Shown here one piece after another: positions 1 to 15,631 of a stretch of DNA of 64,000 nt (the first letter of the stretch is position 1; every line of letters begins with the position of its first letter). The notes under the pieces were generated by a model. That model was not told the origin of the DNA, did not search any database, and saw only the letters and a list, made by a program, of their open reading frames with translations. Source of the stretch: a virus (Duplodnaviria > Caudoviricetes); the IMG/VR virus record IMGVR_UViG_3300017766_003232, positions 1-64,000 of that record; one strand, 5' to 3'. The position numbers and the translations under genes were made by a program.

Positions 1-3000
1 AATAGACCAAATATTGAGACTTCTGCAAAAGCATACAATGTAAGTGCAGATAATTATTATAATGAAGTTTTAAATGCTGTAACTAAATATGATGCAGAAT
101 TAGCTGCTATAGAAAAAACTACTACTACTACAGAAGATATAGAAAAAAGGAGACAAAAAGAGTATAATACTCAATATAATGCTCTTGTTTCAGGACAAGT
201 TTTAGATAATCAAGGAGACTCAGTATATGAAGAAGATAAAGGAATAGGAGCAAATGGTTTATCTACTTTAACGGATAAAAAATATGGTCATGGTCATATT
301 AGGACTAGTGGATTAAATTCTTTAGAAGTACTGGAAAAATTATTAGATGGTTCTGACTTTTCAGGAATGTTTGGTGAAATTGGTAGTGGTGTATATAATA
401 CTTGGGAATCTGGTAAATTTATAATTGTATCTAATAATATTAATCCTACTACAAATAATAAATTAAATCTAAATGAAATAGAAATTATACTTAATGCAGG
501 GTTAAGTCCATTTGCTCAAGAATTAGCTAATAAATATCCTAATGTAGTATTTAAAGATTTTAATGGTAAAAAATACGATGCAAAACTAGTTGCTTTAGGA
601 CAAAATACAAATGTTGTAAAAACTCAAAAAACAGAGTTACAAAAAATAGAACAGGTTAAAGATGTAGTAATAAATGGAGAAAAATATTCATACTATCCAT
701 TAGCTGCAAATAACACTTCTGTATTAATAGCAAATCAAGATTCTATTTTAATATCAGATATGTATGATAATATTTCAGAATTAAAAGTAAGTAATGAATC
801 AATCAAAGAAAATGACATTAAACCTGGTTCTATTTTTTATATGACTGTAGAAAAAGGAGTTCCTAGAATTGTTTCAATAGAAGAAAGTTTACCTGAATTA
901 GGTAATGAAAATGGTTTAAGAACTTATTCAATGAGAATAACTTCTTATGATGCAGGAGGATCAAAAGAAATAGAATCAGGAATTGGTGATTTAGGAAAAA
1001 TAAAATCATTTGAAAGTAGTGTTGGTAGAAATAATCTTAGTAAAAAAGAATTAGCTTCAGAATTAAATAGATTAGGAGTAAAAAAACTAAAAGTAAAACA
1101 AGGATTGATTTTACCTATTGTACCTTCACTTATTAATTATGGAAATTTTGATGAAGATACTACGGTTGAATTACCTAATGATTTAAACATAAATTCTAAT
1201 ATTACTTTTAAATCAAGTAATGTTTTTCAAAAAACTTTTAAATCTATTGCTACAGCAATTGTAGCAAGTAAATTACAATTTACTAAACCAGGTAGATTTA
1301 TAACTAAAAATGGTAATTTAACAAAAGAAGGAAAAGAAATATTAAGTAAATTAACTGACTCAACTCTTCCTAAAAACTTAAAAGATTTAGATAATTTAAT
1401 TTCAGATAATTTAGATAAATCATTATGGGAAAAACAAAAAGAAAATACTATAAATTCTATTGTTTTAGATGCTGTTACTCAAAATAAAAAAATAGCTCAA
1501 TCATTATTAAGTACAGGAAAAGTTAAATTTAATTCTGAATATAGCAATGCATTTGTTGCTACCAGAGAAACAATTAGAGTTAAAAATAAAGAAAATGTAC
1601 AAAAAACATTTAATAATAATATTCCAAGCTTACAAGAATTAAATTCTCCTAGTTTAGGACAAACTACATCCTTACAAGAGCAAGTAGAAAAAAATATACA
1701 AAGTAAAAATATTGATGTAGATGCTAAAAAAATAGCAGATAATATTATAGATTATCCTATTCAAACATTAACAACACTTGCTACTCAACAACTTGTTCTA
1801 CCAACAGAAGAACAAATTAATGAGCAAAAACTTTATAAAAGAGCATTGGAAATTAGATCTGAAAATCAAGAATCTGATAAACCAAAAACAAAACGTACAA
1901 AGTTTAGACCAAATATTAGTAGAGATGTTGATGATTTTGTAGATATGGATGTAACAGCTTCTGAATCATTAAAAGAAGCTGAATCAAAACTTAAAATTAG
2001 TGGACTTAGTATTTCTCAACAAGATACATTGATTAAATACATTGCTTCAAACATTGTACAAAAATCAGTTGAAAATGAGAAAAAAACAGGAAGTAAAGAT
2101 TTTAATTACTCACATATTTTTGAAGAACACAAACAAGAAATTGAAGACATAATTGCTGATTATGAAGAAGATGGATATATTGAACAAGCAGAAAAGTTGA
2201 AAAATGTTCTTAAAGAATATGAAAAACTTAAAGGTTTTGTAAATGATTATCTATCATTAATGACTACTGGAAAAGTAAGACAAGTAAAAAATAAAACTGA
2301 AAATGAAGATGTAAATGATGAAGCATTATCAACAGGATTAGAAAATGTTTTACATACAGATGATTGGTCTTTAACAATGGATTCAAAATCAACAGCATCT
2401 GCTGATTTAAAGAAATTCTTTTCATTTATTAAAGATGTTGATCTTATAAATGGTGAGTATGTAGAAAAAACAAATTCATTAGGTTTTCCAGAAGTTGTAT
2501 TGTTTGATACAGTTTACAATACATTGCATGAAATATTAGCTGATTTACCTGCTGACTATGATCAAATGTTGACTCAATTAGAAGCATACAAAAATCAATT
2601 CCCATGGATTGAAAATGTAATTGAGCAATTAGAAAATGGACCAAAGCATATTAAAAACGAGTTTGTTTCTGATATGGCAAAGCATGGAATAAAAATGCGT
2701 TCTATTATTTGGCAAAAAACAAAAGATGGTTCATTTGAAATGACAAGTTATGATGCAAATTCTTCATCTACTCAACAAAGATTGTTGAATGTATGGGAAT
2801 CTAATCTAAGGTCAACATTGAATACTTCTCGTTTAGTTATTACAAATAATGACGGAGATTATATTTACAATCAAGAATCTGTAGATATTCTATTAGAACA
2901 AGCTAAGAACTGGAAAGAGAATCCTCCAAGTAAAAACAGTAAAGATGATGATGCTGCTGTAATGAATTGGTTAAATTCACTTGGTATTTTTATATCTAAT

Positions 3001-5439
3001 CAAACATTCAATGCTTTGAAAAAAGGTACATATAAAAATAAATCTATTCTTTCTTACGAAGGATTATTTAATAAATCAAATGGTTTAATTAATGTTTTAG
3101 CAAGTGAATTAAAAAATAAAAGAAACACTAAAGTTGATGAATCTAGATTACTAAAAGATACAGTTGTTAAAAACTTAGCAATGATTGAAGCATTATATGC
3201 AACAAATGTATATAGTAACTCATTTAATGCTGGAGGTAAAACAGTTTACACATTTAGTAATAATAAATGGGTTGTAAATAGATTTCGTGACTTAGGTAGA
3301 ACAGATGAAAATGATGAACCATTAAACAAAGATTTAATTGAAGGATTAGAAAAAATTGCATTTACTAGAGATAGTCTTTGGTTAGAGCAATTAAAAAACA
3401 ATCCTGAATTTAGAAATCATTTTGGATTAGATTATTTATCATTAGAAGCAATTAAAAAGAAATTTACACCTTCTAAAGATGGAATGAAATTAAATAATCT
3501 ATCAGATGCAGAGCATGAAGCAATTAAACTTGCTTTATTTATGAATGCTGCTAAACCAGGTGAAGAAGGTAGAAAAGTATCATTTTTCTATCCTACTAAC
3601 TCTGATAAAACTACAATGATGGTAATGAATGCATTATCTCAAAAATTTGAGTTAGATAAAAACTTTAATTTTAATGCAGATTCATTGACATTAAATGAAA
3701 ATGAAGAAGCAGTTTTATCAGATGAAACATTAGATACTTTGTACAAAGCAATCGTTTTACCTGAAATAGCAAGGATTAGAGCGAATAAAGAAAATAATAT
3801 AGCTGGTTATAACGGAAATGCATTTTTCTTTCTTAAATCTCTTAATGTAGTTGAATATGAAGGTAAGACAATATTGGATCATGTAATAGAAGGAACAGAT
3901 GTTCTTTCTGATGAAAAACTTGATGAAATTATTAAGTCAGAACTTTCTGTTATGTTTAACGAATTGCTTCGTAGAAAATTAGAAAACTGGAATGAATCAG
4001 GAATTGGAAAAACAAACAATGATACAAAAGAAAAAAATACATTCTTGGATAGCAAATATATGCAAGGTAAAATCAAAGGTGTTAAATATGCAAGAGTTAA
4101 ATTTGCTGCTGCTGATTTTATTTTTAATTCATTAATAGCAAATGCAGAAGCAATTAAATTAGTTGTTGGAGATCCTGCTTTATATTGGAAAGAAGCAAAA
4201 GGTAAAAATGTTACAATTTTGGATCACATTCGTGAAACAGAAATTAACATGGGTAAACGTCTTGCTGGAGATATTGCACCTGGTATAGAATTAGCAAATG
4301 CTTCTAAAAACAATTATTATCAAGTATTTATTGATGATAAAAAAGTTGGAAGTAAAGGTTTATTATTTGAAAACAATAAAGCAAAATTAAAATCTATTTT
4401 AGATCCAGAAGTATTTGCAAAATATGAAAAAGGAATAGAAGGTGCAGATGCTCAGGAATACACTACTTGGAAAGAACATTTATATGTATTGAAACAATTA
4501 GGTAGATTAACTGAAAAGCAATATACAAAAATGTATAATCTATTGCAAGATGGAAAATCTTTAGAAAATGCAGATTTAAAATTAGTATTGCAACCAATGA
4601 AACCTGTTTATGTAGGTAATATGTTGGATATTGATCAACAAGTTGATAGAAGAATATACATTAAATCTTCAAGTTTTCCATTATTACCACAATTAACATC
4701 TGGATTTGGATTAGATACATTGAGAAATGCATTAGAAGATTTTGAAAAAAGAATGAGTTCTAAAAATTCTTCTAACTTAGATGGTACAAAAGTAACTGTA
4801 AGAGCATCTTTTAATACTGCAAATAAGGTAGGAGCTATAAAAAATTCATTAAAAGTTTACAATAAAGAAGGTAAATTCAATGATGTTATAGAAATCAATG
4901 AAGAAAATTCTTTAAAATTATCAAGAGAAAATTTTAGAATTCAGCAAGATGTTCCTTATGATCCTAATAAGGAAAAAATAAATGTTGGTACACAGGAACG
5001 TAAATTATTGTTCAACAACATTTTAGATATGGAAGGATTTAAAATGTTTGGTGATGATAAACAATACAAAGGAAGTGAGATAAAACAAATTTACGACAAT
5101 GCTTATAAAGATATTTTTGAACATTCTGTAAACAAATTAAAAAGTCAACTTGGTTTATCTGAATATTCTATTGATGCAAGTGTTGATAGTTTATTGGAAA
5201 TTCCAGATACTAATACTTTTGATGTTTTAGATAAAATGAACAAAGAATTGGAAACAGTAAAAGGTAGTCAAATTAAAAAAGAACAAGTAAAAGCTAAATA
5301 CGAAGAAATAGTAAATAAAAAAGATATTGAAAGAGCAGATTATATTAATAAGCATTTTGATGAAATTATTACTAAATTCGCAGAAGCAAAAATTAATATT
5401 TTCTTCAATGAAGATGGAGAAACTAAAAAATGTAATTAA
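1..5439 (+). CDS. Giant virion protein carrying the N-terminal (beta-like) half of the crAss-type virion RNA polymerase; 5'-partial
   Basis: Frame 1 is open from base 1 through the track's ATG at 367, so the gene starts upstream of the window. The C-terminal third has motifs typical of crAss/phi14:2 vRNAP (KRLAGDIAPG, DAQEYTT, QPMKPVYVG, YIKSSSFPL, RENFRIQQDVP, GTQERKL). It is syntenic with the DFDxD-bearing gene downstream. Confidence 0.8.
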   Translation, partial: NRPNIETSAKAYNVSADNYYNEVLNAVTKYDAELAAIEKTTTTTEDIEKRRQKEYNTQYNALVSGQVLDNQGDSVYEEDKGIGANGLSTLTDKKYGHGHIRTSGLNSLEVLEKLLDGSDFSGMFGEIGSGVYNTWESGKFIIVSNNINPTTNNKLNLNEIEIILNAGLSPFAQELANKYPNVVFKDFNGKKYDAKLVALGQNTNVVKTQKTELQKIEQVKDVVINGEKYSYYPLAANNTSVLIANQDSILISDMYDNISELKVSNESIKENDIKPGSIFYMTVEKGVPRIVSIEESLPELGNENGLRTYSMRITSYDAGGSKEIESGIGDLGKIKSFESSVGRNNLSKKELASELNRLGVKKLKVKQGLILPIVPSLINYGNFDEDTTVELPNDLNINSNITFKSSNVFQKTFKSIATAIVASKLQFTKPGRFITKNGNLTKEGKEILSKLTDSTLPKNLKDLDNLISDNLDKSLWEKQKENTINSIVLDAVTQNKKIAQSLLSTGKVKFNSEYSNAFVATRETIRVKNKENVQKTFNNNIPSLQELNSPSLGQTTSLQEQVEKNIQSKNIDVDAKKIADNIIDYPIQTLTTLATQQLVLPTEEQINEQKLYKRALEIRSENQESDKPKTKRTKFRPNISRDVDDFVDMDVTASESLKEAESKLKISGLSISQQDTLIKYIASNIVQKSVENEKKTGSKDFNYSHIFEEHKQEIEDIIADYEEDGYIEQAEKLKNVLKEYEKLKGFVNDYLSLMTTGKVRQVKNKTENEDVNDEALSTGLENVLHTDDWSLTMDSKSTASADLKKFFSFIKDVDLINGEYVEKTNSLGFPEVVLFDTVYNTLHEILADLPADYDQMLTQLEAYKNQFPWIENVIEQLENGPKHIKNEFVSDMAKHGIKMRSIIWQKTKDGSFEMTSYDANSSSTQQRLLNVWESNLRSTLNTSRLVITNNDGDYIYNQESVDILLEQAKNWKENPPSKNSKDDDAAVMNWLNSLGIFISNQTFNALKKGTYKNKSILSYEGLFNKSNGLINVLASELKNKRNTKVDESRLLKDTVVKNLAMIEALYATNVYSNSFNAGGKTVYTFSNNKWVVNRFRDLGRTDENDEPLNKDLIEGLEKIAFTRDSLWLEQLKNNPEFRNHFGLDYLSLEAIKKKFTPSKDGMKLNNLSDAEHEAIKLALFMNAAKPGEEGRKVSFFYPTNSDKTTMMVMNALSQKFELDKNFNFNADSLTLNENEEAVLSDETLDTLYKAIVLPEIARIRANKENNIAGYNGNAFFFLKSLNVVEYEGKTILDHVIEGTDVLSDEKLDEIIKSELSVMFNELLRRKLENWNESGIGKTNNDTKEKNTFLDSKYMQGKIKGVKYARVKFAAADFIFNSLIANAEAIKLVVGDPALYWKEAKGKNVTILDHIRETEINMGKRLAGDIAPGIELANASKNNYYQVFIDDKKVGSKGLLFENNKAKLKSILDPEVFAKYEKGIEGADAQEYTTWKEHLYVLKQLGRLTEKQYTKMYNLLQDGKSLENADLKLVLQPMKPVYVGNMLDIDQQVDRRIYIKSSSFPLLPQLTSGFGLDTLRNALEDFEKRMSSKNSSNLDGTKVTVRASFNTANKVGAIKNSLKVYNKEGKFNDVIEINEENSLKLSRENFRIQQDVPYDPNKEKINVGTQERKLLFNNILDMEGFKMFGDDKQYKGSEIKQIYDNAYKDIFEHSVNKLKSQLGLSEYSIDASVDSLLEIPDTNTFDVLDKMNKELETVKGSQIKKEQVKAKYEEIVNKKDIERADYINKHFDEIITKFAEAKINIFFNEDGETKKCN

Positions 5440-5915
5440 TGGAAAAGTTACTAACAGAAGTAGAAATCAAAGCTTTAAATAAGTTTGGTCAATTTGAAAT
5501 GATAGCAAGTCATACTTATATGTTTCTTGCAAACAGAATGAAATCATTAGGGTATTTCGGTGCAGAAAAATTTTTCAATGCGGAATCAGACGATGAGCGA
5601 AGTCATTATAGAAAGCTTGAAGCATTCATGAATGACATGGGTTGTGAGTTATCTGTTGAGTCATTAGAAAATATAACATTAAATATTTCAAATATTTCAG
5701 ATGCATTAAATCACGCTTTTCAAATGGAGCGTGATTTGTTAGATGCATACGAATCAGTTGCTGGAGGTACATTAGTTTCTTTTAAAACTCGTGTAGTTTT
5801 ACAAGATTTTGTAAACTTTCAAATTGGAGCAGTTGGTGAATATGGAGATTTAATTGCTCGTTTAGCATTAAATGGTGATGTATTAGTGTTTGATAATGAA
5901 TTAGGTGAAAAATAA
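5439..5915 (+). CDS. ftn: Ferritin (non-haem, four-helix bundle)
   Basis: 158 aa with ferroxidase-pattern residues (FEMIASHTY, GAEKFF..ESDDERSH, QMERDLL, QIGAVGEY, FDNELG). Its start overlaps the upstream stop (TAATG). Confidence 0.85.
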   Translation: MEKLLTEVEIKALNKFGQFEMIASHTYMFLANRMKSLGYFGAEKFFNAESDDERSHYRKLEAFMNDMGCELSVESLENITLNISNISDALNHAFQMERDLLDAYESVAGGTLVSFKTRVVLQDFVNFQIGAVGEYGDLIARLALNGDVLVFDNELGEK

Positions 5916-5922
5916 GTAAGAT

Positions 5923-8900
5923 ATGAGCTGTCAATATTGGGTAAAAGATAAATGGGTTTCTGAAGAACAATTCAAAGAAATGTTACAAAATGGTCTATTA
6001 GATCATTATATCCATGAAGGTAAATTTAAATTAGAAGGATTTAAATTAAAACCTAAAAGAAAAGAAAAAGTTGCAGCTCGTACTACAATACCTGCTTCTA
6101 AATTGGCTGAACTATTAACTGAAGAAGTAAAAACAAGACAAGGATACCCAGAAAATATTCTGGCAGCATTGGAACTTACTCCAGATGGTAGTGATTTTAA
6201 AATACCATTATGGGCAAGTAACTATGCTGATAAATTTGAGAGTTTATTAACTGCAATAATTAACAATAAAATTGTTAAACAAAAATTTAGCGGTCACTCA
6301 TATGTACTTGGTTCGGAAGAAGGTTTTGAATTAAAAGAAGGAGAAGAAGCAATGGAAGAATTAAAAAATTCTAAAATTGTTTTTTCAGATAGTTTTAATC
6401 CTGAATTAGGGTTACTACCAATAAGATTTGATGAAAAAACAGGTGAATTATTACCTGGTCAAATAATGATTCCATTTAACTTTAAAAATAAAGATAAAAA
6501 AGGTAATAAATTAAAATTATCTGATTATACAAAAATGGTGGATGGTAGAATGATGATTGACATGGATAAGATACCAGAAAAAATGTTACGTTTATTTGGT
6601 TTCCGTATTCCTAGTCAGGCACATAACTCTATGGCTTCATTAGAGATAGTTGGTTTTCTACCAGAAGAAATGGGAGATTTAATGTTAGCTCCAAAAGATT
6701 TTACAGTACAGATGGGATCGGATTTTGACGTTGATAAATTGTATACTTATATGTACAATGTAAAGCTTCAAAAAGATGGAAAACTTAGTACAGATTTTGA
6801 TTCTGAAAAAGAGCTAATAGAAAATAGACAAAACACTATTTTAGATATTCATCATGCTGTTTTAAGTAATTCAAATGAAGATATGGTACGTGCTATTTTA
6901 GCACCTGATTCATTTGGAGAATTTGAAGATTTAGCAAAAGAAGTATATGATTTAAAAGTTAAAAGTGGTCAAATTAAAGATACACCTACTTTGCTTTCAG
7001 ATGATTATCAAAAAAATAAATATATCAATGCTACAGCAGGTAAAGATGGTGTAGGTAACTTTTCTTTAGATTCTACTTTTAATTCTATTATACAAGGGAA
7101 AGAACTTGTTTATTTTATAAATGATGATCCAACAATACCTATTCCAAATAACTATAAAGACAGAATAATGAAAAATAACTTTTCTGTTTTATTTGGTGAT
7201 ATTGAATCAAGAGGAGATTTATCAAATCCTTATACTTTAAATTCTCAAAAAATAATTGAGAAAGCTGGTGGTATTGATAAGTTATCAAAAGAACAAAAAA
7301 GAGCATTAAAATTTAAATCTAAAGTAATTCAAGGTTTACAATCATCTGCTGTAGATAATGAAAAAGCACAAATTCTTGATAAATTAAATATCAATAATGA
7401 TACATTTGATACTATTAGAGCAATGTCATTATTGGGATTTGAAGAAAATGAAATAGTTGGTTTAATTACACAAGATATAATTGTTGAATATGTTAAAGCA
7501 ATGAAATCAAATAATTCATCTTTAACATCTTACAATCCAAATGCATTAAAAGATTTCAAAGATAATTTTATAAAAAAATACGATCCAACTGGAAAAATTA
7601 ATGATATTATTGTAAATAAAGAAGATACAATTGATAAATATAAAAACAAATCTACAGGAACTGAATTAATTAATAAATTAAAAGATTCTCAATTAGTAGA
7701 AGGAAAAGAAGCATCTGATAAAGTTATTGAGCAATATTTCTTACTTGAAAAATTCTTACAATTAGCAGATGTAGGTAAGACAATTAAATCTGTTCAATCT
7801 TCTATTAACACAGAATCTTCTGGTTTACCAAAAAATTTAATTGAAACAAAAACAAAAGTTGATCAAATAAATCAATTAGAAACTAGTTCTATTTTAAATG
7901 CTGAAACATTATTAGGTGAATATGAAAATGGTAAACTTGTATTGCCAAATACAATAAATGGATTCGCTGCGTTCCATGGTGCAATCTTTGGATATTCTAT
8001 TTATGAAAAGTTTTTCCCTTATAGCAATAATGGTTTACAAACTCAATTAACAGATATTTTAAATCATATTCCAAATGGTTCAACTTTTTCATTATCAAAA
8101 TTAACTGAATTTAAAATGGATGTAATGGACGAAATTCGTTCATACTTATTTAGTGATCCTTCTATTGGTATACATAGTGGAAATTCATTTTCAGAGCAAG
8201 TAAGATTATTTATTGATAGTGAAAATAATGATTCATTAGCTACTATTTTTGAAAAAATCAAAAAGAAAAATGAAGCATGGTTTATAAAAAATCAATTTTT
8301 AAATAAATTAAGCACAAGCTTACAAACAAATGGTTCAGCATCAAGAATCAATTTTGAAGCTTCTACAGGTGAAAACTTAGACGAGAAAGACATTTACTTA
8401 GGTTTCTTAAATTTATTGAATACAGAGCGTGATTTAGGCAAGTTTAATGGTATTCAATACTCATCAAGAACATTTGCACAAGATTTAATTTCTTATGCTT
8501 ATTTAGAAGGTGGTCAACAAGGTGCTAAACAATTCTTAAAATACATTCCAGTAGAATATCTGAAAGCACTTGGGTTTGGTGAATATTTAAGTAAAGTAGA
8601 TTTTTCTTTTACTCAACTATTTAAAGGAGCAGTTAATGATATTGGAGAACCGATTTATGATCTTCCATCTCGTTTTACAAGACAATTTTTTCAAAACAAT
8701 CCTGATAAAGTTAGAAAAATTTCAACAAATGAAACTATTGTTTCTAAGGATGAAAGAGAAATGGAAATCAAAAAAGATTCAATCAGTAATTACTTAGCAA
8801 ATGATGAAACATTAACTAAATTCTTAGCAGTTTATGATGCAAAAGCACCTGGAAAACACAGATTATATGAATATGATTCTTATAGTAGGAAATATTTAAG

Positions 8901-11541
8901 AATACCTACTATTAAAAATGATTATGGATTTAAACAATATGATGTACATAATGACATTAATGTTCCTTCTCAAAAAATAGGATATGCAGTTGCTCCTGGA
9001 TTTCAAAAAAGTCAAAGTGTTCCAACAAAAGTTGAAACAAATGCTAAACAGGTTCAAAATACAAATCCAATTATTAAATTATCTGGATTAAAATTAAATA
9101 ATTCTTTAAAAAATAAAGAAGCAATTGTTGATTTATTAAATAAAATAAGTGAATCATCAACAAATTCATATTACAAAAAATTAGCAGAGTTATATGCTGA
9201 TTTAAATTATCCAGAAAACTTTAAATTTAATTTAGATAGTTCAGAAAATCCAAGAGTAAAAGCAAGTTTTAATAGTGGTTCAAACACATTGACTCTTTAT
9301 AAAAATTTATATAAAGAAGATGAATCTATTAATGATTTAGCAGAAGCAGTTTTACATGAATTAACTCATTTATTTACAAGTTCAGTTGTTAAAGATTTTA
9401 ATGTTAATCCAAATAGTGTTACAACAAAACAAAAAACAATTTTAAATAAAATAAAAGGTTTACAAGCAAAATATACAAAGTCATTATCTAAAGCTGAATT
9501 ATCTGAATTATATACATTCAGAAAAAGCTATTGGGATATGAAATTGAAAAACAATCAAGTATCTAAAGAAGAGTATGATAATATTTTAAGTGAACCAATT
9601 AATGGAGTTGATGATCTATTTAATAATGAAGGAGAAATCAAAAAAGGATTTACAAATAAATATTATGGTTCAATTAAATTAGAGGAATTCATTACAATGG
9701 CTCTTACAAATGCTGATTTCCAAAGATATTTAAATAAAATTACAGATAGTGATTCTAAAAGTTTATTAGGTAAATTCTTATCTGAGATTGCTGAATTAAT
9801 TGGATCATTAATTGGAATTAATGTTGAAAAAGGTTCATTATTAGAATCATCATTAATTGAAATAAATAATTTAATAAAAGAAAATCAAGCACAAGAAATA
9901 GAAGATAATAGTGTTGAAAATACTAAATATCAATTATTTCCAGGTGTATATGCAAATTCTGGTCAAACAAAAGCTTTAGACAAAATGTCTGAATTTCTTA
10001 AAAATGATGATGACCAATTTTTATTAAAAGGTAGAGGTGGTACAGGTAAAACTACTATTATTAAGAAGATTATTGATAATAGTGGAATACTGCATAATAG
10101 AATTATTGGAGCTACTGTAGCAGATGAAGCTAGAGGAATTTTAGCTAGTAATTTACCTTCTACTATTACTACTAAAACTATGGTAGGATTATTAGGTTTA
10201 GTTCCTGACTATAGTAAACAAGGGGACTTATACTTTAGAGAAAGAAATACAAGAGAACAAATGGAATTTGATAGTAAAGGCAAATCAGATCCTATTGAAA
10301 ATGCTAAATTAATTATCATTGATGAAGCATCTATGGTCTCAAAAGATCTTTATGACATCTTAATGCGTAAAAAACTAAAAGATGCTAAAGTAATTTTTAT
10401 GGGGGACAATGCACAAATTCCACCTATTAATGAAGATGGTAAAAGTACAGACAGTCCAGTATTTAGTTTACTAGAAAAAGGTACTAATTTTTCAGAATTA
10501 ACTGAAAGAATGCGTCAAGGTGAGGAAAGTCCAATATTACCTGTAACAGATGTTTTTGCAGAAAACATTGAGAATATACAAAGAGGAGAAGTTGGGAAAG
10601 CTAATCCACTTAAAAATAGAACAGATGTTTTTGATACAGCTTCTAATTCAGGAGTTGAGTTTATAAGTGATAAACAAACTTTAATAGATAGTTTTATAGA
10701 AGATTTTCGTCAAAATAACGATACAAAAAATGCTATTATTATTGGAGCGAGAAATGAAATTGTAGATAATTTTTCTAAATTAATTAGACAAAAATTATTT
10801 GATGCAACAGATCCTTTTGTAGTAGGAGATGTTATTAGAGTAAATTCTCCACATATAGTAAATAACCAAGTAGAATTTGCCAATGGGTTTAAAGGTAAAG
10901 TTACACAAGTATCACCTCTAGGTGCTAATCAATTAGGAATACAATTGTATAATATTACTGTAGAATATGATAGTTTAGATTCAGCAGGAAATCCTATAAG
11001 ATCTATAGCTAATTTAACAACTGTTTCTCCTGAAAATAAATTAGATGTAAAAAAAGCTCTTAAAAATTTAGCAGCAAAAGCAAAAGCAAAATTAATTCCT
11101 TGGAAAGTTTTTTATACATTAAAAGAATCTATTGTAGATGTAGGATATAATTATGCAATTACTGCTCATAAAGTACAAGGATCTACTTACAAAAATGTAT
11201 ATGTTTTAGAAGAAGATATTATGAGTTTCCCTGGAGGAAAACTTCAGCAAAACAGAATGATGTATACAGCTGTTTCTAGACCTAGTACTAAATTGGTTAT
11301 ATTTAGTAATAAAAACAAAGTACAAGCAGAAAATGCAGAATTTAATCCTGATTATTTTTCTAATCAAACTCCTCCAATGAGAGAAGATGGAGATCCAGGT
11401 TTTGATCCTACTTTCGATCCAGAAAATTTTAGTAAATTTGGTGGAAATAATGATTTTGATAATGATAGATTTGATCCTTCAACAATGTATGATCTTCCAT
11501 CATTAGAAGAATTTGATAATTTAAAACGAATTTGTAAATAA
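5923..11541 (+). CDS. Virion RNA polymerase catalytic (beta'-like) subunit fused to a zincin metallopeptidase and an SF1B (Dda/RecD-like) helicase
   Basis: GFRIPSQ and GSDFDVDKL (DFDVD at 6721-6735). HELTH zincin motif at 9355-9369 with downstream EEF. Helicase motifs GRGGTGKT (10030-10053), DEASM, GDNAQIPP, ERMRQ, YAITAHKVQGST, YTAVSR. Confidence 0.9.
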   Translation: MSCQYWVKDKWVSEEQFKEMLQNGLLDHYIHEGKFKLEGFKLKPKRKEKVAARTTIPASKLAELLTEEVKTRQGYPENILAALELTPDGSDFKIPLWASNYADKFESLLTAIINNKIVKQKFSGHSYVLGSEEGFELKEGEEAMEELKNSKIVFSDSFNPELGLLPIRFDEKTGELLPGQIMIPFNFKNKDKKGNKLKLSDYTKMVDGRMMIDMDKIPEKMLRLFGFRIPSQAHNSMASLEIVGFLPEEMGDLMLAPKDFTVQMGSDFDVDKLYTYMYNVKLQKDGKLSTDFDSEKELIENRQNTILDIHHAVLSNSNEDMVRAILAPDSFGEFEDLAKEVYDLKVKSGQIKDTPTLLSDDYQKNKYINATAGKDGVGNFSLDSTFNSIIQGKELVYFINDDPTIPIPNNYKDRIMKNNFSVLFGDIESRGDLSNPYTLNSQKIIEKAGGIDKLSKEQKRALKFKSKVIQGLQSSAVDNEKAQILDKLNINNDTFDTIRAMSLLGFEENEIVGLITQDIIVEYVKAMKSNNSSLTSYNPNALKDFKDNFIKKYDPTGKINDIIVNKEDTIDKYKNKSTGTELINKLKDSQLVEGKEASDKVIEQYFLLEKFLQLADVGKTIKSVQSSINTESSGLPKNLIETKTKVDQINQLETSSILNAETLLGEYENGKLVLPNTINGFAAFHGAIFGYSIYEKFFPYSNNGLQTQLTDILNHIPNGSTFSLSKLTEFKMDVMDEIRSYLFSDPSIGIHSGNSFSEQVRLFIDSENNDSLATIFEKIKKKNEAWFIKNQFLNKLSTSLQTNGSASRINFEASTGENLDEKDIYLGFLNLLNTERDLGKFNGIQYSSRTFAQDLISYAYLEGGQQGAKQFLKYIPVEYLKALGFGEYLSKVDFSFTQLFKGAVNDIGEPIYDLPSRFTRQFFQNNPDKVRKISTNETIVSKDEREMEIKKDSISNYLANDETLTKFLAVYDAKAPGKHRLYEYDSYSRKYLRIPTIKNDYGFKQYDVHNDINVPSQKIGYAVAPGFQKSQSVPTKVETNAKQVQNTNPIIKLSGLKLNNSLKNKEAIVDLLNKISESSTNSYYKKLAELYADLNYPENFKFNLDSSENPRVKASFNSGSNTLTLYKNLYKEDESINDLAEAVLHELTHLFTSSVVKDFNVNPNSVTTKQKTILNKIKGLQAKYTKSLSKAELSELYTFRKSYWDMKLKNNQVSKEEYDNILSEPINGVDDLFNNEGEIKKGFTNKYYGSIKLEEFITMALTNADFQRYLNKITDSDSKSLLGKFLSEIAELIGSLIGINVEKGSLLESSLIEINNLIKENQAQEIEDNSVENTKYQLFPGVYANSGQTKALDKMSEFLKNDDDQFLLKGRGGTGKTTIIKKIIDNSGILHNRIIGATVADEARGILASNLPSTITTKTMVGLLGLVPDYSKQGDLYFRERNTREQMEFDSKGKSDPIENAKLIIIDEASMVSKDLYDILMRKKLKDAKVIFMGDNAQIPPINEDGKSTDSPVFSLLEKGTNFSELTERMRQGEESPILPVTDVFAENIENIQRGEVGKANPLKNRTDVFDTASNSGVEFISDKQTLIDSFIEDFRQNNDTKNAIIIGARNEIVDNFSKLIRQKLFDATDPFVVGDVIRVNSPHIVNNQVEFANGFKGKVTQVSPLGANQLGIQLYNITVEYDSLDSAGNPIRSIANLTTVSPENKLDVKKALKNLAAKAKAKLIPWKVFYTLKESIVDVGYNYAITAHKVQGSTYKNVYVLEEDIMSFPGGKLQQNRMMYTAVSRPSTKLVIFSNKNKVQAENAEFNPDYFSNQTPPMREDGDPGFDPTFDPENFSKFGGNNDFDNDRFDPSTMYDLPSLEEFDNLKRICK

Positions 11542-11542
11542 A

Positions 11543-14500
11543 ATGGGAGATTTTTGTCCAAATAAATCAACTCCAGAATGGAAAATTCTGGAAGAACAAG
11601 TAGGTTCGGATTTAGCAATGTATACTTGGTTGTATTATGGTAATAACATACCAAATGTTCAATCATCTAGTAAAATTAAACGTGATTTAAGATTCAGACC
11701 AAACGAAGAACGAATGGAAAGAATTTATCATAATATTAATGTTTACAATCGTAAAAATTCAACATCTCATTATGTAAGTAAAGTAAAATCATATGGTAAT
11801 ACATTTGATGTTACTTTACATTATAATTATTTACCAGTAAATATTGAAAAGAAAAGACAGCAACAAATGCGTAGAAAAGATACGTTTGTTGTTGAAAATT
11901 TTAATTCTACAGGGTTTAATGAAACATTTAGACCAAAACCAAATGACAGACTTACAAGTCCTGCAATGGATGAAAATATTCAATCTATAAATGAAGATGG
12001 AGATGTTGTACATCCAGATAATATACCTATGGACATGGATTATTTGGTTGATGATGCATCTTTACAAATTTCTAAAACAGAACAAAAAAGAAAGAAAAGT
12101 ATTGATGCTGAAATAATAAAATTAAAAGCACAATTAAATTCTACAACTGATCCATTATTAACAAAAGGATATTTAGCAAAGATTCAAAAATTAAAAAATG
12201 ATTCTGAAGATGCAGATAAAAGAATTGCAGTTGCTAAAAAAATAAACGAAGAAGGTGATTTTACAAATGTATTAATGTATGCAGAAAGCCAATTAAAATT
12301 GGTTGAAGAAATTTTATCTGAAGATGTAGTATCAGCTGACAATATTCTATTAGCACAAAGAATAATCAATCTTTGGAAAAAAGCTGGAGACTTTTCAGAA
12401 GATCCTACAAAACATATTATTTTAGATGAAGATGAGGTAAATACATCTGATATACGTAATTCATTTAGACTTAAAGCAGGTCAAGCAGAAGATTTAGAAA
12501 GACTATTAAATCCTTTAAAAGAAAGGTATATTGTAAATTTTGTAAATGAAAATATTGATACTACATTAAGTAAAGAAGAAATATTTAAAAATTTAAAAGA
12601 TGCAGGAATGCTAACATCTAATTTTTTACATCTTGGTAGAAATGAAGATGCAATGGTTCAAGCATTGTTTGCAGCAGTTGAATCTGCTAATATATTAGCT
12701 CAAAATGAAGCAACTGCTTTATGGAAAGAGTTAGATAGTCTTACTGAAAAAGCAATCTCTAAAGCAAAAGGAATAAGTCCTGATAAAAATCCATTTAGAA
12801 TTTATTCTCAAAAAACTAAATCTGGTTTAGATACTGGAAAGATGGTACATAGATTTTCTGCTGAATTTTTTACAAAAGCACAAGAATTAAAATATCAAGC
12901 TTTTCAAAAAATTGATCCAAAAACAGGTAAAAAATCAGGTACAAAAAGAGAAATTGCAAATTATTATAAATGGATGAATCAAAACACAATAACGTTTGAT
13001 TATAGAAAATTATTTGTGGATACAGATGAAAATGGAATGATACCTGCTGAATTTCTATTTGCAGATAATTTTTCATCAGATGAAAAATCTAAACATATCA
13101 ATGAGCTAAAAGAAAATTTAGGAGAAAAAGGATATGAAATTTATATGAAACAACTTGAAGCAAAGTTTGAAAAATTTAAAACAATGCGTGAAGTTGAATG
13201 GGATAGAATTTCTGGACTTAGTGTAAGTGATGATGTTAAAAAAACAATATTTGAAAATTGGAATAAAGAAAATTCACCTTTTTGGTATTCTGAAATGTTA
13301 GAAAAAGAATCATTAAAAACAAAAAAAAATGGTGAATATTACAATACTTTCAATGCTCAAAAATATACACAAGAAATACCTAAAAAATTCATAGATGGAA
13401 AAAGAACAGAATGGTATGATTCAAACTTTGAGAAAATAGAAAACGATGTAGATTTGCTTAATTACTACAACCATTATATGGATTTGTTAAAGCAAATGAA
13501 ATCTGTTCTACCACAAGACAAACAAAAGTTAATGGGTATGAATGATATTCCAAAAATGAAACAATCACTAATGGATCAATATGCTGAAAAAGGTATGTTG
13601 ATGGGTGTATTACCTTTCTGGAATAAAATGCAAGAAATGATTACTACTACAGATTTAGCAACTATTGATAATTCTGATATTGATCCATTCACAGGAATTA
13701 AAGAAAAAAATATTAATATTTCATATGTTGAGGATGTTAATCAAAAAATAAATGATCTTGTAAAAATTAAAAAAATTAAATACGAACAAGAATTTGGTGC
13801 AACAAAAGGTCCAATAACAGAAACTATAATAAAGCAACTTAGAGAAGAAGCAAGACATGAAATAGCACAAGAAAATTCATTTGATTTAACTAAGATAATG
13901 AAGGCATATAGTGTTATGGCATTGGGGTATAAGCATAAATCTATTATAGAACCACAAGTTAGAATGTTAGAACAAGCTTTTAAAAATAGATCTGAGATTC
14001 AAACAAATAAAGCAGGTAAAATAAGTACTCAAAATGGTAAAGAAATTGCTCAAAAAGGATTATCAAATTTAACAAAGCAATTTGACTTTACATTGGATAC
14101 ATCTTTTTATAACTTAGGTGGTAGAAAAGTAGAAGGTGTAAGTAAAAAGAAAGCATTTACAACTCTTGAAAAAGCTAAAATTAAAGAGTTAAATGTTCTA
14201 TTAGAAAATGCTACAAGTGAAGAAGATAGAAAATTAATTCAAGAAAAAATTGATAGCATTGGAGGAAATGTTACAGGAAGTGCTATAGGTGATATGTTTT
14301 TAAAATATATGACATTTAAAGGTTTAGGATGGAACGTTGGTTCAGCATTTTCAAATATGTCATTTGGTTTTATTTCTAATCTTACAAATGCTTCTGAAAC
14401 ACCTGCTGATTTAAAAAGAATGAAACGAGCATATAAAAAAGTTGTTCATTCAATTGGTAGAAATGCAAGTTTTAATACTATTTCAACAGATGAAGCAATA

Positions 14501-15631
14501 AAGATCAGGTCATTTATGGATAAATGGGATTTAATGAAAACTTCAAACAATGAGTTATTTGAAAAAAGTGAGAAATCATCAATTAAAAAAGGTTTAGGTA
14601 GATTTGGTCCAATGACTATGCAAGAGCGTTCTGAATACTTGAATTATGCTCCAATAATGATTTCTCAAATGATGGCATTTAAAGCAAAAGATGCTGATGG
14701 AAATGAGGTTGAATTATGGGATGCATATGATAAAGATGGTCAATTAAAAGAAGGATACACAACTGATGTAAATGAGGTAAAATTGATTCGTAAAATCAAA
14801 AGAATGATTGAAATGAGTCATGGTGATTACAACAATGCATTAAAAGTAAAAGCAACAATTGGAGGTAGATTTTTAACACAATTTCGTACTTGGATGTTTG
14901 AAGGTTTTGCTACAAGATTTGAATCTGAAAAAATAGATTATGCTTTAAGCTATGGTCGTGATAGTGAATATATTAGAAAAGGTAGATATAGATCATATAC
15001 TGCTGGTCAATTAACAACAGCAGGGATAGCACTTGGTACTACTATTTTACCAGGTATAGGTACAGCAGTTGGAGCAGCATTAGGTTTTGGAATTGGTAAA
15101 ATTGCAGGTATGAAAACTGATCAGTCAGCAATTAATGACACAGTATTTACATTAAAACAATTAGTTAGAAAGTTAATGTTTAAATCTACAAAATTTGAAG
15201 ATAGATTTACTGAAACAGATGCTGCTAATATGCGTAAGAATATGACAGAATTATATTTTCTAATGGGTGTTGCAGGATTAACTTTGTTACTTACAGCAAT
15301 GGGAGGAGACGATGATGATGATAAACAATTTGCTGCTAATTTTCTATTAAATCAAATGACACGTATGCAAACGGATATTACGTTTTATACAAACCCAATG
15401 GAAGCAGAAAAATTAACAAAAACAGCAATTCCAGCATCTCAATTATTGGTTGATGTTGTTGATTGGTTTGGAGATGTTAAAAATTTATATAATGAAGATT
15501 TAAAAGACGATACATTTAGATCTGGTCCATTCAAAGGTTCAAGCAAAGCATTGATTCATTTTGGCGAAATGATTCCATTTGCAGCTCAAGGAATTAAACT
15601 TAAACGAACAGCAACTACATTGTTGAAATAA
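11543..15631 (+). CDS. Large virion core/ejection protein (crAss cargo-type)
   Basis: 1362 aa, largely helical and directly after vRNAP. N-terminus CPNKSTPEWKIL; C-terminal Gly-rich hydrophobic segments. Function is inferred from synteny. Confidence 0.6.
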   Translation: MGDFCPNKSTPEWKILEEQVGSDLAMYTWLYYGNNIPNVQSSSKIKRDLRFRPNEERMERIYHNINVYNRKNSTSHYVSKVKSYGNTFDVTLHYNYLPVNIEKKRQQQMRRKDTFVVENFNSTGFNETFRPKPNDRLTSPAMDENIQSINEDGDVVHPDNIPMDMDYLVDDASLQISKTEQKRKKSIDAEIIKLKAQLNSTTDPLLTKGYLAKIQKLKNDSEDADKRIAVAKKINEEGDFTNVLMYAESQLKLVEEILSEDVVSADNILLAQRIINLWKKAGDFSEDPTKHIILDEDEVNTSDIRNSFRLKAGQAEDLERLLNPLKERYIVNFVNENIDTTLSKEEIFKNLKDAGMLTSNFLHLGRNEDAMVQALFAAVESANILAQNEATALWKELDSLTEKAISKAKGISPDKNPFRIYSQKTKSGLDTGKMVHRFSAEFFTKAQELKYQAFQKIDPKTGKKSGTKREIANYYKWMNQNTITFDYRKLFVDTDENGMIPAEFLFADNFSSDEKSKHINELKENLGEKGYEIYMKQLEAKFEKFKTMREVEWDRISGLSVSDDVKKTIFENWNKENSPFWYSEMLEKESLKTKKNGEYYNTFNAQKYTQEIPKKFIDGKRTEWYDSNFEKIENDVDLLNYYNHYMDLLKQMKSVLPQDKQKLMGMNDIPKMKQSLMDQYAEKGMLMGVLPFWNKMQEMITTTDLATIDNSDIDPFTGIKEKNINISYVEDVNQKINDLVKIKKIKYEQEFGATKGPITETIIKQLREEARHEIAQENSFDLTKIMKAYSVMALGYKHKSIIEPQVRMLEQAFKNRSEIQTNKAGKISTQNGKEIAQKGLSNLTKQFDFTLDTSFYNLGGRKVEGVSKKKAFTTLEKAKIKELNVLLENATSEEDRKLIQEKIDSIGGNVTGSAIGDMFLKYMTFKGLGWNVGSAFSNMSFGFISNLTNASETPADLKRMKRAYKKVVHSIGRNASFNTISTDEAIKIRSFMDKWDLMKTSNNELFEKSEKSSIKKGLGRFGPMTMQERSEYLNYAPIMISQMMAFKAKDADGNEVELWDAYDKDGQLKEGYTTDVNEVKLIRKIKRMIEMSHGDYNNALKVKATIGGRFLTQFRTWMFEGFATRFESEKIDYALSYGRDSEYIRKGRYRSYTAGQLTTAGIALGTTILPGIGTAVGAALGFGIGKIAGMKTDQSAINDTVFTLKQLVRKLMFKSTKFEDRFTETDAANMRKNMTELYFLMGVAGLTLLLTAMGGDDDDDKQFAANFLLNQMTRMQTDITFYTNPMEAEKLTKTAIPASQLLVDVVDWFGDVKNLYNEDLKDDTFRSGPFKGSSKALIHFGEMIPFAAQGIKLKRTATTLLK

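Follow-up and report, generated by a model that had tools for sequence, protein, structure and literature searches.

The only crAss-type virion RNA polymerase (RNAP) that has been studied, gp66 of phage phi14:2, works well only on single-stranded DNA (ssDNA) in vitro, and how RNAPs of this type gain access to a double-stranded DNA (dsDNA) template is a problem in itself. gp66 is a two-barrel enzyme, both double-psi beta-barrels (DPBBs) of which lie in one chain of 2,180 residues. According to a preprint it is self-inhibited in the crystal (PDB 6VR4), and the limits of its parts are residues 1095-1238 for the Connector, 1361-1365 for the catalytic DFDID, 1529-1559 for the bridge helix and 1598-1636 for the trigger loop. 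The gp66 block, a late block of giant proteins in which the RNAP has a zincin-like neighbour, gp65, is packaged in the phi14:2 virion. Here we describe a relative of gp66 that differs from it in several respects: P0001, a protein of 1,872 residues encoded by the open reading frame (ORF) at 5923-11541 of a viral DNA stretch of 64,000 nucleotides (the window), which makes up the opening 64 kb of an IMG/VR viral contig of 88,921 bp (IMGVR_UViG_3300017766_003232). P0001 shares with gp66 a fold, over gp66 residues 1170-2123, and the DFDxD motif, and its gene likewise stands in a block of giant ORFs. However, the zincin is a neighbouring gene in phi14:2 and a downstream part of the same chain in P0001, and gp66 has no helicase, whereas P0001 ends with an intact one of the Dda type.

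Two further kinds of system are relevant. One is QDE-1 of Neurospora, a two-barrel RNAP related to gp66 that uses ssDNA made available by a helicase and a single-stranded DNA-binding protein; it requires the QDE-3 helicase and RPA. This is a functional analogy only: QDE-3 is a eukaryotic RecQ-type helicase on a separate polypeptide, whereas that of P0001 is of the Dda type and fused. The other is the polyvalent proteins of phages and conjugative elements, which are defined as packaged scaffolds with a processing peptidase and exchangeable enzyme cargo (PMC5512222). In these proteins, and in the N4 virion RNAP with its HExxH domain (Iyer et al., 2017, PMC5512222; PMC13434306), a late or virion protein carries an RNAP, then a zincin-like metallopeptidase and variable add-ons, as is the case here. 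The former survey deals with T7-like N4 RNAPs and with SF2 or UvrD-type helicases; its text mentions no two-barrel RNAP of the crAss type and no helicase of the Dda/RecD type. On balance, we consider it somewhat more likely than not that P0001, encoded by an uncultured crAss-like phage from fresh water with Flavobacterium phage FpV4 among its relatives, is a polyvalent cargo protein of the virion in which the helicase is an optional cassette.

The helicase domain of P0001 has the complete motif set of superfamily 1B (SF1B): Walker A GRGGTGKTT (residues 1370-1378), Walker B IIIDEASM (1464-1471), motif III GDNAQIPPI (1494-1502), motif V ITAHKVQGSTY (1746-1756) and motif VI YTAVSRPS (1781-1788), motif IV also having been located. 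It is matched by the Pfam families AAA_30 (E 3e-17), PIF1 (2.5e-12) and UvrD_C_2 (1.5e-7), by PHROG 325 "Dda-like helicase" (E 2e-74) and, in a phmmer search of the PDB, by 9kwf_B over residues 7-432 of 434 (E 1e-23) as well as by 8jx6 and T4 Dda. A structure model of residues 1001-1872 superimposes on T4 Dda (3upu_A; Foldseek E 1.3e-24, TM-score 0.76 normalised to Dda) and on 8jx6 (E 6e-25), so that the fold is that of T4 Dda and related SF1B helicases (3UPU, 8JX6, 9KWF). T4 Dda and these related helicases are free-standing proteins of about 440 residues, that of T4 being the product of an early gene, whereas P0001 carries its helicase as the C-terminal module of a giant late-block protein. 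The residues of motifs I to VI are invariant across 28 fused homologs that are only 26-50% identical to P0001, which argues for an active enzyme. No second Dda-like helicase was found in the 88.9-kb contig.

Immediately upstream of the helicase lies the zincin module, of which H1145, E1146, H1149 and E1255 are invariant in the same number of homologs (28) and near-invariant in a second set of 34; E1255 (nt 9685-9687) is a candidate for the third zinc ligand. Against the PDB, a profile of the family aligns across the HExxH with 9sfn_G (E 2e-4) and with the minigluzincins projannalysin (4jix, E 0.002) and MJ1213 (4qhf, E 0.007). In the homolog P0115 the Pfam family SprT-like reaches 31.4 bits, against a cut-off of 25.6, at the corresponding HExxH, and in three others it scores 24.6-24.9 bits. 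With P0001 itself only helicase families pass the Pfam thresholds, the SprT-like match over HELTH being sub-threshold at 13.7 bits, and the Foldseek list for the model of residues 1001-1872 is filled by helicase matches. The matching part of 9sfn chain G, residues 419-569, belongs to an "internal virion protein" of 1,337 residues, which also has the downstream EF..(M/W)(A/G)LTD..FQ..LN motif seen in the zincin module of the P0001 family.

As for the RNAP, an AlphaFold2 model of residues 1-1100 (mean pLDDT 74, with values below 50 for the DPBB2 core residues 227-271) has a sole significant match in the PDB, which is gp66 (6VR4, Foldseek E 3.5e-13). VIA-align places model residues 52-1028 on residues 1170-2123 of 6vr4_A, with a Z-score of 22.6 and a root-mean-square deviation of 4.9 Å over 746 aligned residues. 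At the level of sequence the similarity to gp66 is undetectable by HMMER: neither phmmer nor a 34-sequence profile reached gp66 or any other solved relative of the first 1,100 residues in the PDB. By the domain limits given above, P0001 covers the range of gp66 from within the Connector through the C-terminus, which in gp66 includes part of the Connector, DPBB2, the bridge helix, the trigger loop and the C-terminal domains. Since the alignment begins at residue 1170, inside the Connector, the modelled chain corresponds to the DPBB2 (beta-prime-like) half of a two-barrel RNAP and lacks the first barrel; the joint presence of both DPBB domains in one polypeptide, by which the gp66 family is recognized, is not found in P0001.

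The missing barrel would be provided by the giant ORF just upstream. This ORF matches positions 2752-2991 of phrog_16227, which directly precede the positions matched by P0001 (3040-3254), and its last 600 residues have a homolog in frame, directly upstream of the DFDxD region, in more than 60 unsplit related loci. Because of this collinearity and of the same-frame homologs in unsplit relatives, the RNAP is regarded as split between its barrels into two genes, with DPBB1 presumably in the upstream ORF. The ferritin-like gene that occupies the break is translationally coupled, in a layout common to 14 related IMG/VR loci. Two loci are unsplit and have no ferritin gene, yet are nested within the split clade (L011 and L026, the RNAP core of the latter being 60% identical), and at least three changes of the split state are counted on the RNAP tree. 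A weak NADAR-like match also lies in the upstream giant protein at window 1258-1524 (residues 298-386 of ORF 367-5439; Pfam E 0.0034, below threshold; phrog_1017 E 1.5e-5).

A sequence-only reading of this DNA had proposed that one polypeptide combines a virion RNAP, a zincin and an SF1B helicase. The motifs on which it relied do lie in a single ORF, DFDVD at residues 267-271, HELTH at 1145-1149 and the helicase motifs at 1370-1788, and the three domain assignments were borne out, those of the RNAP and the helicase by the predicted structures compared with gp66 and T4 Dda and that of the zincin by profile matches. Its background was also sound with regard to the template preference and autoinhibition of gp66 and to the link between RNAP and zincin in crAss-like phages, in which the zincin lies in the RNAP block and single-polyprotein forms occur in some. 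However, what it called an RNAP has the gp66-type fold and the DFDVD but corresponds to the DPBB2 half, not to a whole enzyme.

How common is the fusion? Among 120 clusters of proteins of near length, all of which have DFDxD near residue 270, a full helicase is present in 78, a partial one in 1 and none in 41, and a single HExxH is found at the equivalent place, near residue 1250, in nearly all of 119 matches. Of the best 80 IMG/VR loci, 21-22 have the helicase, in every case within the same ORF and on the C-terminal side of the zincin; in none is it a neighbouring gene. The spacer between zincin and helicase ranges from 31 residues in P0001 to 560 among homologs, the longer ones holding NADAR, ART-PolyVal or AlkB-type domains, and the helicase is followed by a stretch of 48-85 residues that ends in a conserved Cys tail, which is also present in the forms that have no helicase. 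A fusion is also found in RefSeq Crassvirales: gp14 of cr118_1 (KNV30_gp14; NC_055872.1, Besingivirus coli), annotated "exonuclease V", is a single coding sequence of 4,946 residues with GSDFDIDKLY at residue 3209 and a full Dda-like helicase at 4437-4912. It differs from P0001 in being unsplit and in having its only HExxH at residue 1734, upstream of the RNAP motif; in the stretch from its RNAP to its helicase the zincin profile matched nothing. Among GenBank phage records there was none with a match spanning the junction of zincin and helicase in P0001, cr118_1 having surfaced solely through its helicase. The fusion is thus not rare but widespread in public data, including a reference genome. 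The sequence-only reading had named a fusion that is already common and functionally explained as what would speak against it; common it is, but a full-text literature search found no paper on the fusion or its function, while older figures of crAss-like genomes might show the helicase. With NADAR, ART-PolyVal, AlkB and SprT-like domains and inteins combined variously in the homologs, the family has the features by which polyvalent proteins are recognized, namely several domains, a late context, a processing peptidase and variable add-ons.

The helicase is an optional and frequently exchanged cassette, not a fixed part of the RNAP. A FastTree tree of the RNAP core with 80 rows, several branches of which are long, requires at least 14 changes of the helicase state. 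Near-identical RNAPs differ in the helicase, as in L035, which has the helicase, and L006, L007 and L008, which have none; the same applies to L081 vs L068 and to L021 vs L060. Identities of helicase and RNAP are only weakly correlated (Spearman 0.23-0.26), and the two trees are incongruent. For example, the helicase of the window is 66% identical to that of L010 and 38-40% identical to those of L004, L005, L012 and L043, yet the RNAPs of these five loci are all 52-54% identical to that of the window. The stand-alone helicase of one relative nests among fused ones. When 16 genomes were compared, seven had a fused helicase with no second copy, three had a stand-alone gene opposite the virion-block strand, and in six no Dda-like helicase was detected, five of these six being rated complete (G001, G004, G006, G008 and G009) and four having terminal repeats.

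The nearest cultured relatives, the Flavobacterium psychrophilum phages FpV4, Fpv3 and similar ones, illustrate the alternative arrangement. gp32 of FpV4, a "virion structural protein" of 4,287 residues that also belongs to phrog_16227, is 28% identical to residues 61-1344 of P0001, which correspond to the RNAP half and the zincin, and the two genomes are of the same size class. In FpV4, however, the giant ORF is single and unsplit, has neither the ferritin gene nor a fused helicase, and a Dda-like helicase is encoded elsewhere, on the other strand. The stand-alone helicase match in FpV4 (L084, NC_041872.1 78191-80676, minus strand) is in two pieces about 1.2 kb apart in separate frames, one of which has an internal TAA, so that the gene may be interrupted by an insertion. 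The features of the window that are considered here are collected in Table 1.

Table 1. Features of P0001 and of the adjoining ORFs, in window coordinates (aa, amino acid residues of P0001).
Feature	Position	Strand	Remarks
Giant ORF upstream of P0001, open at its 5' end; its C-terminal part would bear DPBB1	1..5439	+	phrog_16227 positions 2752-2991
Ferritin-like gene in the RNAP break	5439..5915	+	Pfam Ferritin E 1.4e-13; equal position in 14 related loci
Whole ORF (P0001), 1,872 aa: RNAP beta-prime-like half, zincin, SF1B helicase, conserved C-terminal tail	5923..11541	+	Covered by contigs from two samples
N-terminal extension of about 55 aa, limited to split forms	5923..6087	+	Begins with conserved MxC(E/Q)YF motif (Cys3)
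RNAP half, aa ~52-1028	6076..9006	+	Matches gp66 residues 1170-2123; phrog_16227 positions 3040-3254
Catalytic DFDVD, aa 267-271	6721..6735	+	D267, F268, D269 and D271 invariant in 34 homologs
Metallopeptidase module, zincin-like (SprT/minigluzincin type), aa ~1050-1297	9070..9813	+	HELTH, aa 1145-1149, at nt 9355-9369
Low-confidence linker, aa 1298-1334; cassette-insertion site in relatives	9814..9924	+	Model residues 298-311 and 317-334 have pLDDT <50
Dda-type SF1B helicase, aa 1335-1800, motif set complete	9925..11322	+	Walker A Lys is K1376
Acidic disordered tail, then conserved C-terminal helix ending at Cys1871 (…LEEFDNLKRICK)	11323..11538	+	Model residues 801-859 have pLDDT <50
Third large protein of the block	11543..15631	+	1,362 aa; no Pfam or PHROG match

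An outline of how such a protein would work is as follows. P0001 lies on the plus strand past the genes for the terminase, portal and major capsid protein (MCP), and FpV4 gp32, its homolog, is annotated as a virion structural protein; it would be produced late, be packaged in the capsid and leave it together with the DNA upon ejection. Residues 1 to ~1,030 would act as the beta-prime-like subunit of a two-barrel virion RNAP that is split into two genes in this lineage. Between the zincin and the conserved C-terminal tail there would be a permissive slot, in which relatives place different cargo and which here holds an intact Dda-type helicase of predicted 5'-3' polarity. The cell would thus receive a finished helicase, whereas some relatives express theirs from the block on the opposite strand, which is presumed to serve replication. 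In the cell it would presumably do the ordinary work of a Dda-type helicase on the incoming genome, opening the duplex and clearing bound proteins, and so help early transcription and replication to begin, while the zincin may free it from the polymerase at the disordered linkers. Since the tail is kept irrespective of the helicase, the cassette seems to sit inside a protein whose two ends both matter.

What became of the self-contained machine for entry and transcription that the sequence-only reading had proposed? In this explanation the helicase acts in cis, loading on the entering genome to give the RNAP an ssDNA template or to reel the DNA in, or both, and the zincin activates the complex. 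The efficient transcription of ssDNA and denatured DNA and the poor transcription of dsDNA by gp66 in vitro, the requirement of QDE-1 for a helicase, the recurrence of the physical fusion in distant lineages including cr118_1 of Crassvirales, and the purifying selection on the helicase motifs are all in its favour. Yet complete close relatives with the same RNAP do without the helicase, as do some whose RNAP is near-identical to one that carries it; the spacer of 31-560 residues, in which unrelated enzymes are held, leaves no fixed geometry; helicases are swapped independently of the RNAP; in other relatives the helicase is a stand-alone gene opposite the virion-block strand; and the other RNAP half would be on a separate polypeptide. 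It is because of this comparative pattern, patchy, swapped and variable in spacing, that a polyvalent scaffold with exchangeable cargo is favoured over an obligatorily coupled machine, which we regard as rather unlikely and which is further weakened by the commonness of the fusion. A helicase that is repeatedly fused to a crAss-type RNAP is an obvious candidate helper, and where it is carried it might be the missing factor that lets an ssDNA-preferring virion RNAP start on the entering dsDNA genome, relatives without it relying on a host factor or another route; this, too, we consider unlikely. As an optional and often exchanged cassette, the helicase cannot be the general answer to the problem of template access. 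Several points nevertheless weigh against P0001 as a scaffold with exchangeable cargo. The presence of the protein, or of its helicase part, in virions is deduced from context, and the activity of every fused helicase is a prediction. Fused and stand-alone copies look mutually exclusive (a second copy in 0 of 7 genomes with the fusion vs a stand-alone gene in 3 of 9 without it), which with only 16 genomes is not statistically significant, and the long branches of the FastTree tree make the exact number of changes uncertain. Moreover, patchiness would be compatible with a functional coupling of helicase and RNAP wherever the former is present.

The injected helicase could instead serve mainly to shield the DNA on entry, for instance by outrunning host nucleases or defence proteins that bind DNA, or by stripping them off. 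Relatives fill this slot with NADAR, ART-PolyVal and AlkB-type domains, such as polyvalent proteins engaged in phage-host conflict typically carry, and a rapid, patchy turnover is what would be expected of genes in an arms race. However, Dda-type helicases are ordinary accessories of replication and recombination, the stand-alone copies in relatives lie in the opposite-strand block, which in the window is where the replication genes are, and no PADLOC or anti-defence homology turned up, no search aimed at either having been made; we consider such a role distinctly unlikely. It is highly improbable that the helicase is no cargo at all, in which case the zincin would cut it off before packaging, it would act at a late stage in the cell that produces the virions, for instance by resolving DNA ahead of packaging, and the fusion would be no more than a route of expression. 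The position of the gene in the late block, the disordered linker before the helicase and the protease module immediately upstream of it fit this possibility, but the conserved tail with its terminal Cys follows the helicase and is kept whether or not there is one. For the polyvalent scaffold, the comparison implies that giant cargo proteins have a defined slot between zincin and tail, in which phages exchange one enzyme for another, presumably for delivery to the host, and this slot should be useful in annotating the many giant genes of crAss-like genomes that are now called "hypothetical" or "exonuclease V".

The fusion in P0001 might also be a product of assembly, two phages having been joined into a chimera at the conserved P-loop word. 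The likely source run has one contig of 9,963 nt over 5000-10056 and another of 17,719 nt from 10029 on, so that the break, nt 10029-10056, coincides exactly with the GRGGTGKTT codons. At these 28 nt the Logan assemblies of both runs branch, with a summed depth of 160-195 against about 5-30 nearby; this roughly five-fold jump in depth arises because other sequences in the samples share that exact word. However, the left contig already runs through the zincin and ~44 residues into the helicase domain, the depth is similar on both sides of the break (29.3 and 27.6), one contig of a second study agrees with the window throughout 9686-10056, and the identical architecture is found in dozens of independent assemblies. 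It follows from the contigs crossing the junction that in two samples the zincin is contiguous with the helicase domain up to about residue 44 of the latter. A chimera at the P-loop was thus rejected, its probability being negligible.

The sequence is present in two studies labelled freshwater metagenome, and none of the sequencing runs that contain it is listed as RNA. P0001 belongs to a plus-strand block that extends from the genes for TerL, the portal and MCP to several giant ORFs downstream, while the minus strand encodes a DNA polymerase, a primase, DnaB-like and SF2 helicases, an exonuclease and a ligase. The third large ORF of the block begins 2 nt past the stop codon of P0001. At the other end, the ORF at the end of the contig (84221-88921) and the ORF at window 1-5439 join in frame to make a single reading frame of 3,379 residues, and no terminal repeat was found on the 88,921-bp contig, which suggests that the genome is circularly permuted, nearly complete and cut inside this giant gene, despite a CheckV completeness estimate of 68%.

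The ORF of P0001 itself is intact and open under translation table 11. At its N-terminus, split homologs align from residue 1 and unsplit ones only from residue ~51-60. A Cys within the last few residues is kept in 114 of the 120 homologs, with or without a helicase. P0001 has just two cysteines, Cys3 (nt 5929-5931) and Cys1871 (nt 11533-11535), which lie within the conserved terminal motifs MxC(E/Q)YF and ...(L/I)C(G)K, respectively. Most homologs have an additional segment of ~85-100 residues, which P0001 does not have, at a point corresponding to window ~6820 (after residue ~300). In P0054 and P0061 there is instead an insertion of ~350 residues near residue 377, with matches to the intein/homing-endonuclease Pfam families PF05203, PF05204 and PF14528.

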